A DNA stretch of 63,230 nucleotides, filler included, from Collodictyon triciliatum (taxonomy: Eukaryota): assembly GCA_043381765.1 (NCBI GenBank). It is 37 parts of 37 records of this genome, joined end to end, with 100 filler letters (N's around TTAATTAATTAA, not from the genome) between each part and the next. Parts side by side here need not be neighbours in the genome. Positions count along the whole stretch, not along the records: positions 11,675 to 13,241 come from JBHJMP010010760.1; positions 13,342 to 14,899 come from JBHJMP010010761.1; 35 more parts are not named here. One strand, given 5' to 3'. The translations under genes were made by a program, and so were the position numbers. Under the pieces are notes generated by a model, which was not told the origin of the DNA, searched no databases, and saw only the letters and a program-made list of their open reading frames with translations. This document shows positions 11,675 through 13,438 of the stretch, piece by piece (within the stretch, counting starts at the first letter, position 1; each line of letters starts with the position of its first letter).

Positions 11675-12861
11675 TCCCACGATTTTTGATGTGCCTGGAT
11701 GGCTTTTGTATTTGCATCTTCAGCCGTTTCAGATTGCGAAGCCGGTTCTTTGCCTCTTTTTCTTTTGTTTGATTTTTTTGTTGGTTGTTCATTTTGACCA
11801 AATGCTTGCTTCATCAAATCGTAAATCACATAATAATAATTATCGCTCCAATATTTTGCGAATTGATAATAGTTTTTTTCCGGTGTGTCAGCTTCCCAAT
11901 AAACTCCATTGTAAACATACAAGACTCCGTTGCAAGCCGTAAACTCTTTTTTTTTCGCAATCTCAGAGGCAATATTGTACAAATCAAACGGGTCCCAGAA
12001 ATTAATGTTTACTTTATCCGCTGTCTTGAGGTCAATTATCTCAGTCATTTCTTTATGAATAAAAGTTATACCCGGTTCATCTACATATTCATTTATCATT
12101 TTTATGAATTTTTCGAGACCCATTGCCTTGTATCGGTCTTTATGTAAATAAAAACCATCGTGAGCTGGGATATACATATTTGTGTTTCTTACAAATTCCA
12201 GGGCTTTGACGAGATAAACAGACTCGTAGTGTTGCATAATCAGGGACATTCCCGTATTTACTATTTCATACGGATTTTCTTTTTCTTGTTTGGCCATATC
12301 AAAAAACTTTTTGTAATCAGGGAGGCTAACAAATTGTTCTTTGAGTCTCTTTGATTCTTCATAATATGTTTTTACAAATTCAGATTCGGTTGCATCTACA
12401 ATTTTTTTGTCTTCAACCCAGGTAGTGAATCCTCCGCCGAAATTCATAATGTTGAACAGGTCTTTGGCATCTGGTTTTGAGCACTTGTATCTATCCATAA
12501 TCTCAGACAAACATAGGTCTCGATTATTACAGTAACGCGTCAATGCTTCACATTTTATGTTATGTTTGTTACACAACTTTAAAAGAATGCTGGGATGGCA
12601 ATTCGATATATCCACGTCTACATAATTTTGATGTAACAATGTCTGCTTTATCCATCTTGGTAGCGCATTGATATCTGGCTTGCCCCAAAATCGTCCCTCG
12701 TTTTTTTGAGTGTACTCGACTTTTACCACCCCATCCACAACTGACTTTTTTAAAAAAATCAAAGCATTCTTTACACTTGTTTGCTGACTAATAAATCGTT
12801 CTGTTTTGCAGAGCTCGGTTATATCGTCTTTACAAATCTGAAATTCAACTTTCAACGACAT
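11675..12861 (-). CDS. TV-Pol-like (family A polymerase-related) primase-polymerase fused to the start of a D5-like helicase; truncated by piece end; probable virus/mobile-element gene
   Basis: Intronless ~395-codon ORF. Ordered PolA-like motifs: GRFWG..INALPRWIK, motif A YVDVDISNCHPSIL, motif B DAKDLFNIMNFGG, SLIMQHYES, motif C AHDGFY. Then LYVYNGVYWEAD, resembling D5_N regions of primase-helicases. Confidence 0.8.
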
Positions 12862-12962
12862 CTTCTTACAATCCCTTACGAAAATGTTTTTAAGCCCTTG
12901 TTTTGTTGCGTTTCAATTGATAAAAAACAATGGGGGAGGGGGGAGGCTGGCCCATTTTTTTA

Positions 12963-13100
12963 TTTTTTGGCCCAAAAATCCCAAAAAAAATGGGTAAATC
13001 ATAAACTCCGCGTAGGCGTTTTTTTTTTACATCGAATTAAAATTCAACATAGGCAAAGAATTTTTTTAGGCATTTTTTTTGGGATTTTTGGGCCAAAAAA
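12963..13100. repeat. Perfect 30-bp inverted repeat (12963-12992 / 13071-13100), 78-nt spacer, upstream of the TV-Pol ORF
   Basis: TTTTTTGGCCCAAAAATCCCAAAAAAAATG and its exact reverse complement CATTTTTTTTGGGATTTTTGGGCCAAAAAA. Confidence 0.9.
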
Positions 13101-13438
13101 ATGGGAGGCTAATCAAATGAAACTAAAATTTTTTCGTTCAGCAATTTAGATTGAATTTTATAAATCCTATTATTTTTTTCTTTTCTATGAAACTTTTCAA
13201 GATAGTATATGTAGTTTTGTAAATCGTCCAAGTCGTCATATNNNNNNNNNNNNNNNNNNNNNNNNNNNNNNNNNNNNNNNNNNNNTTAATTAATTAANNN
13301 NNNNNNNNNNNNNNNNNNNNNNNNNNNNNNNNNNNNNNNNNCAATTTTCTCATATGCAGCGACCTCATCATAGTATTCGAGATTCATGGCTGTCTTGAAA
13401 TCATTCCTAATAAGAAGATTTCGGACCGCCCTGAAAGT

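Follow-up and report, generated by a model that had tools for sequence, protein, structure and literature searches.

A TVpol-D5_N replication gene fragment, probably from a virophage or Polinton-like virus, in the Collodictyon triciliatum assembly

Results and Discussion

Gene layout of a 1567-bp contig

We analysed a stretch of 63,230 nucleotides (nt) from the genome assembly of Collodictyon triciliatum (GenBank GCA_043381765.1), hereafter the window, and in it the truncated gene of a viral-type replication protein that lies on contig JBHJMP010010760.1, hereafter piece 7. The window (positions 1-63230) consists of 37 short contigs, mostly of about 1.55 kb and in descending order of size, joined by spacers of the form N44-TTAATTAATTAA-N44. 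Because these are separate contigs, the adjacency of pieces has no biological meaning and the neighbours are silent on the context of piece 7. An initial annotation of the window had singled out piece 7 as unlike the other pieces and as carrying an intact TV-Pol primase-helicase gene of a virophage or Polinton-like virus (PLV). The contig does stand apart: no tandem-repeat array was found in piece 7, whereas 33 of the 37 pieces contain at least one. Its GC content is 0.345. Neither introns nor a terminal repeat were found on piece 7, and Rfam gave no match across the whole window.

Most of the contig is taken up by one stop-free open reading frame (ORF) on the minus strand, with the extent that the initial annotation had given it (Table 1). 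Its ATG is accepted as the start because the 827-amino-acid homologue P0003, described below, begins alike. The gene is nevertheless not intact, as had been claimed, since the contig ends after 395 of the roughly 815-830 codons and the helicase part is missing from piece 7. The closest homologues run on into D5_N and an SF3 helicase, and piece 7 thus carries only the 5' half of the gene. All six motifs quoted in the initial annotation (GRFWG, DVDISNCHP, AKDLFNIMNFGG, AHDG, LYVYNGVYWE and KKSNKRKRGK) lie at about the places assigned to them, AKDLFNIMNFGG falling within 12477-12430 on the minus strand. The tail of a second gene on the same strand, placed upstream by that annotation, also exists, but it continues 36 nt past position 13145, where it had been thought to end. 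No homologue of this 43-residue tail was found.

Table 1. Features of piece 7, in coordinates of the window
Feature	Position	Strand	Description
Piece 7	11675..13241		separate 1567-bp contig between two N44-TTAATTAATTAA-N44 spacers; without tandem repeats or host-like flank
5' part of TVpol-D5_N-SF3 helicase gene	11677..12861	-	395 codons, ATG at 12861, stop-free, cut by contig end
TVpol domain, residues 1-285	12007..12861	-	minimal family A polymerase core, pLDDT ~97
GRFWG	12682..12696	-	R57 invariant (82/82); directly after model strand 45-52
DVDISNCHP	12592..12618	-	first palm strand (80-85); D84 in 82/82, D82 in 80/82
Fingers helix KPDAKDLFNIMNFGGG	12430..12477	-	[R/K]xxxK motif (K129, K133), K133 invariant; motif B-like
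AHDG	12154..12165	-	second palm hairpin (230-240); D235 invariant (82/82); motif C-like
Start of D5_N module, residues 289-395	11677..11997	-	Pfam D5_N on P0002 residues 295-463 and P0003 residues 314-477; weak vaccinia D5 fold match
LYVYNGVYWE	11893..11922	-	within start of D5_N module
KKSNKRKRGK basic stretch	11749..11778	-	in residues 356-376, modelled as disordered, pLDDT < 50
Intergenic region, 247 nt	12862..13108	-	inverted repeat and adjoining C/G-rich tract
Inverted repeat	arms 12963-12998 and 13065-13100		between upstream ORF tail and TVpol start; 36 nt, 94% complementary, 66 nt apart
Upstream same-strand gene tail	13109..13240	-	43 codons and TAG

A minimal family A polymerase fold

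The protein was modelled with AlphaFold2 on an 82-row alignment of relatives, from which all conservation counts given here also derive. The mean predicted local distance difference test score (pLDDT) of the model is 85.9, rising to about 97 across residues 1-280. A Foldseek search of the PDB with this model returned 59 matches at E <= 1e-3; all of the 47 listed are family A DNA polymerases, with Bst Pol I as the best (E 3.5e-5). An independent structural search of 48,161 chains with VIA-align likewise placed Pol theta first (Z 14.8, 266 residues aligned, root-mean-square deviation 4.0), together with the Klenow fragment (Z 14.5) and T7 RNA polymerase (Z 9.8), and its top 18 rows consist exclusively of family A polymerases or T7-like RNA polymerases. 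No archaeo-eukaryotic primase is among the matches listed from either search. The likeness to palm and fingers of PolA that the initial annotation had predicted was therefore found. It is structural only, because the sequence itself gives no match to DNA_pol_A, nor to any other Pfam family, at E <= 1; searches of PHROGs and, with phmmer, of PDB sequences yielded nothing above a chance-level row, and no polymerase.

Palm and fingers superpose on those of Klenow, Bst and Taq polymerases, Pol theta and T7 DNA and RNA polymerases (Z 14.8-9.8 over some 255-266 residues) with residues like those of motifs A, B and C in matching order, at an identity of about 12-15%. From the motifs of Pol I and from these structural matches, we take DVDISNCHP, the fingers helix and AHDG to align with motifs A, B and C, respectively. 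D84 is, judged from sequence and model, the putative metal-binding aspartate of motif A type. Seven residues (R57, D84, R114, K133, E213, D235 and K270) are invariant in all 82 relatives, and the piece 7 protein has every one of them.

The arrangement resembles that of the TV-Pol family. According to the family description (PMC2579912), a TV-Pol has a thumb, a β-hairpin bearing an arginine that is absolutely conserved, a palm whose two metal-binding aspartates are highly conserved and, inserted after the first palm strand, fingers that carry an RxxxK motif, and it lacks a nuclease domain; the thumb is an N-terminal module built on two antiparallel helices, and the palm is RNA recognition motif (RRM)-like and of family A type. 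In our model the fingers form a helical insert at residues 88-224. We take R57 as the conserved arginine of the β-hairpin, where it would contact the template. As to the thumb, the structural alignments begin at model residue 1, but the model has short helices only, at residues 11-17, 21-24 and 28-39. The polymerase core begins no later than 30 residues past the ATG, and residues 1-281 match as polymerase only. No fused nuclease domain for proof-reading is seen: no Pfam domain is found and the fold matches polymerase only. Compared with the Klenow fragment, the piece 7 core is shorter (about 285 against about 400 residues), has no exonuclease domain and is of the helicase-fused kind.

Among predicted viral structures in BFVD, the best named matches are virophage and giant-virus proteins: the DNA replication protein of Zamilon virus and a protein of Pyramimonas orientalis virus (both E 4.3e-17), the helicase/primase/polymerase of Qinghai Lake virophage (1.1e-13) and a Catovirus protein (1.8e-12), with ordinary phage Pol I proteins ranking far lower. 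Downstream of the polymerase, residues 289-395 have a weak fold match to residues 321-387 of vaccinia D5 (Z 4.2). A profile of the family run against PDB sequences matched in its C-terminal helicase part only, to poxvirus D5/E5 and other primase-helicases. The initial annotation had described a PolA-like TV-Pol followed by a D5-type module, and with family A polymerases as the top fold matches, virophage replication proteins at the top among viral models and homologues that carry D5_N and SF3 domains, we arrive at the same description.

Homologues and phylogeny

Two full-length relatives show what the missing half should look like. P0002 is 92% identical to the piece 7 protein (E 4e-243), 815 residues long and encoded on a 5-kb contig; P0003 is 80% identical and 827 residues long, the longest of its contigs measuring 24.9 kb, and a cluster mate of 823 residues lies on a contig of 12.7 kb. 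Both P0002 and P0003 carry Pfam D5_N and DUF5906 (the SF3 core) with a Walker A-like GSGRNGKG. They emerged from a word-based search only among longer proteins, none being found at similar length. An exhaustive HMMER search of 1.84 billion cluster representatives gave 2924 matches at E <= 1e-3, 657 at <= 1e-10 and two at <= 1e-30, and most of the 150 matches listed are proteins of about 700-900 residues that cover query residues 30-290 or so. Given P0002 at 4e-243 and 2924 matching cluster representatives, the reading frame is not a product of chance.

A phylogeny was computed from 136 TVpol domains over 280 columns with a quick run of IQ-TREE under LG+G4. The piece 7 protein (P0001) forms a clade with P0002, P0003 and P0004 that has a support of 99 and sits on a long stem. 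No close relatives turned up in IMG/VR when P0001, P0003 and P0004 served as queries, and a scan of a metagenome contig collection found only five loci, all distant (23-34% identical). The clade is real, deep and rare. The proposal of a new lineage in the initial annotation holds to that extent, though not as regards novelty, for the proteins with 92% and 80% identity are already in public metagenomes. The piece 7 gene is a divergent new member of an established gene type, TVpol-D5_N-SF3.

That gene type is known from several systems. Sputnik V13 is a TV-Pol fused to a D5 helicase (PMC2579912), and a TVpol-S3H fusion protein is reported (PMC4642659) for the PLVs PgVV and PLV-YSL1 as well as PLV-RED1. 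With the TVpol-S3H proteins of virophages (Sputnik V13, Zamilon, Organic Lake, Qinghai Lake) the piece 7 protein shares the domain order TVpol-D5_N-SF3, its helicase being known from the homologues with 92% and 80% identity, and virophage proteins are its best matches among viral predicted structures. It differs in that its clade stands apart on the long stem and has a KRKR-type insert in D5_N. The fusion layout is shared with the PLV proteins as well, a likeness drawn from their description and not from sequence.

Genomic setting of the family and viral type

To learn in which kind of genome such fusions reside, IMG/VR was scanned with a 16-row alignment, the broad alignment being too diverse for a collection scan. 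This yielded 52 loci, 50 of them on contigs of 29.4 kb or less. For companion genes, 780 ORFs from 57 loci were clustered and the cluster representatives annotated. A Sputnik-type major capsid protein (PF21915 and PF22031) is encoded in 14 of the 57 loci, a V18/19 penton protein in 15 and a member of the packaging-ATPase family in 28; at least one of capsid, penton and ATPase is present in 37. Further loci (groups B and C) have the ATPase alongside other large proteins that lack annotation, and have no Sputnik-type capsid gene; they may be PLVs. The setting of the family is in line with published accounts.

One further companion deserves mention in its own right. A small DUF5754 (PF19058) protein, found in 37 of the 57 loci, is the commonest companion of TVpol-S3H, ahead of any capsid gene, and is sometimes fused into far longer proteins of up to 938 residues.

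We consider it likely, with a probability of about 0.8, that piece 7 derives from a small double-stranded DNA virus, or a virus-like element, of the virophage or Polinton-like kind and bears the first 395 codons of its replication protein. Several points weigh against this view. On piece 7 itself, genes for a capsid, an ATPase, a protease and an integrase were not found, and for that reason the name virophage or PLV is borrowed from relatives about 30-36% identical. When the 780 context ORFs were compared with the window by tblastn, they matched piece 7 only and none of the other 36 pieces. Relatives whose genomic context can be read are just 21-45% identical or thereabouts by best segment. 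The position of the clade in the tree is not settled, the next larger grouping (19 rows, support 91, not starred) being a mixture of one contig from a giant-virus bin, virophage contigs with capsid genes and contigs without a label. In the piece 7 protein RxxxK begins with lysine, as in 27 of the 82 relatives, against arginine in 51. We found no measured activity of a helicase-fused TVpol in the papers cited here, and PMC7581432 states that, as of 2020, no TV-Pol other than its own subject had been characterised. The occurrence of the family on giant-virus contigs and in prokaryotes belongs here too, and each bears on an alternative origin.

The same fusion occurs on contigs of 361,644 and 719,641 bp (loci L013 and L020), lengths typical of giant viruses, and on five contigs from giant-virus bins, and proteins of Pyramimonas orientalis virus and Catovirus are among the BFVD matches. 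Piece 7 might accordingly come from a giant virus (Nucleocytoviricota), or from a virophage-type cassette within one, that infects the sequenced organism or left a fragment in it. However, all but two of the IMG/VR contigs of the family fall within the 29.4-kb limit, the closest homologue on a long contig sits on just 24.9 kb, in the tree the piece 7 clade stays apart from the rows of the large contigs, and no viral genes appear on other pieces of the window. We therefore regard a giant-virus origin as improbable.

Weaker relatives were also found at seven prokaryote loci. Large enterobacterial contigs hold three of them, and contigs of 7-9.5 kb from metagenome-assembled genomes (MAGs) the other four. 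These loci raise the question of bacterial or phage contamination, in which case the TV-Pol would belong to a prokaryotic mobile element or a tailed phage. TV-Pols were, after all, first described largely from bacterial mobile elements and phages, as PMC2579912 recounts. Rows 13-17 of the BFVD matches are phage proteins, and ESM Atlas returned only viral clusters named 'hypothetical protein', the top ones labelled Uroviricota and the nearest mostly labelled tailed phages, which we treat as a lead only. Records of a 'phages' collection match as well (30 listed of 585), yet in those 30 the helicase half alone is matched and the TVpol part is never covered. The prokaryote matches are partial and 24-42% identical, and four of the seven lie on the short MAG contigs, possibly viral sequences put in the wrong place. 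In BFVD the virophage proteins score 1e-17 to 1e-20 against 1e-12 or worse for phage proteins, and the relatives at 92% and 80% identity have the fused layout of virophages. Contamination of this sort is, in our judgement, very improbable.

The four short MAG contigs are filed under Sandaracinaceae, Flavobacterium, Francisellaceae and Burkholderiaceae; they bear TVpol genes and may be virophage-like contigs that were binned with bacteria by mistake.

Occurrence in fresh water and source of the contig

Relatives of piece 7 are found well beyond this assembly. At least 20 sequencing-run rows from 12 studies, environmental and mostly freshwater, share part of its sequence words; among the run matches listed, none reaches half of these words and none is recorded as RNA. 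Freshwater contigs from four runs in four studies align to piece 7 at about 94-97% identity, for example over 932 nt with 50 differences, 499 nt with 21 and 200 nt with five. One run spans all 30 bins of piece 7, and its contigs extend beyond both ends. In fresh water, then, close relatives occur widely and at low depth. Such an occurrence is compatible with free virions and with copies in a common host alike and does not distinguish between them.

The gene could in principle be a cellular one, such as a domesticated replicase of the sequenced eukaryote that lies outside any mobile or viral element. It is located in an assembly of eukaryote-like character, the GC content at third codon positions (GC3) of its ORF, 0.36, is inside the range of 0.29-0.61 among ORFs of the other pieces, and its basic stretch fits the consensus for nuclear import. 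Because of that spread, GC3 does not separate virus from host. Against a cellular gene, piece 7 is without host flank, intron and repeats, near-identical DNA occurs across freshwater metagenomes of several studies, and all relatives with readable context are on contigs of viral type. We find this explanation scarcely credible.

The structure of the assembly has a bearing on where the putative viral fragment came from. Tandem-repeat arrays, mostly A-rich, lie at the start or end of 29 of the 37 pieces, so that the assembly seemingly breaks at microsatellites. Both ends of piece 7 fall within unique coding sequence, as suits a source with low coverage or polymorphism better than a host region bounded by repeats. 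We lean slightly towards a co-sequenced origin of piece 7, either as a free or infecting virus or as a passenger of the culture, over an integrated copy.

Proposed role in replication

The features described above suggest how the protein may work. Its TVpol part comprises a palm with the putative catalytic aspartates D84 and D235, the arginine R57 and a KxxxK fingers helix, without an exonuclease, and is followed by the start of D5_N; in the full-length relatives the next part is an SF3 helicase that has a Walker A loop. The helicase part would load on the DNA of the element and unwind it, while the TVpol would lay primers and probably extend them, using D84 and D235 for templated synthesis. 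With both activities joined in one protein, the element could initiate its own replication. The reading frame, the fold, the conserved residues, the order of domains in the closest relatives and the kind of contig that bears the wider family are observed; we infer the polymerase and primase activities, the missing 3' half and the type of element from the relatives and from analogy, the latter to the family definition and to CCPol with its partner MP from SCCmec. This pair extends primers and also primes DNA de novo, the latter depending on the two palm aspartates, as PMC7581432 reports. CCPol and the piece 7 protein have the TV-Pol family in common; they differ in that CCPol is bacterial, stands alone, depends on a partner and adjoins a helicase instead of being fused to one.

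Many virophages and PLVs have TVpol-S3H as their signature replication gene. Protist genomes commonly contain such viruses, some of which lower the progeny of the giant viruses that infect those protists (PMC12220804). A copy in the assembly of an organism could link a host to a virus lineage otherwise known from metagenomes only, and such links are scarce. The present value of the 1.6-kb fragment is as a pointer back to the raw reads.

Basic stretch and intergenic inverted repeat

The D5_N insert that sets the clade apart contains the basic stretch KKSNKRKRGK. A basic cluster is present at this site in all four clade members, and the insert is absent from the other 78 aligned relatives. KKSNKRKRGK fits the consensus of a classical monopartite nuclear import signal, and we take this as a lead only; the initial annotation had likewise suggested a nuclear localisation signal. 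It is conceivable, if rather unlikely, that P0001-P0004 represent a separate lineage of small eukaryotic DNA viruses that has gained a nuclear import signal and replicates in the nucleus, not in a giant-virus factory, with the sequenced freshwater organism as a possible true host that might hold integrated copies. If true, a lineage so far encountered only in freshwater metagenomes would be tied to a host for the first time.

The inverted repeat of the intergenic region (Table 1) scored highest among all upstream regions examined. Metagenome relatives vary at this region through small insertions with TGGGCC as a common core. The repeat could be a candidate origin, promoter or terminator structure. 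As a trait of the TVpol family at large, inverted repeats were rejected: scores of at least 18 were reached upstream of the gene in 5 of 43 cases and in 1 of 60 controls, a difference that is not significant (Fisher p = 0.08) and amounts to a hint.

Other pieces of the window

Pieces 21, 24 and 32 are, like piece 7, without tandem repeats, and their ORFs yielded no lead. Among the host pieces taken as single-copy is one with a DUF676 gene at 15176-16156. Two other pieces, at 6687-8198 and 58058-59706, consist mostly of long tandem arrays within open frames. One of them is made of (GATTCT)n in higher-order units of 174/252 nt and has a frame of 519 codons; in the second, a 56-nt unit is repeated 28.8 times along a frame of 591 codons. 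Neither of these array-built frames has a Pfam match. Piece 37 (61683-63230) is a single open frame of 516 codons with 5.5 copies of a 279-nt unit. It matches Ephrin_rec_like in 15 stretches, along with NCD3G and TNFR-type cysteine-rich domains, and looks like a host-type cysteine-rich surface-protein repeat.

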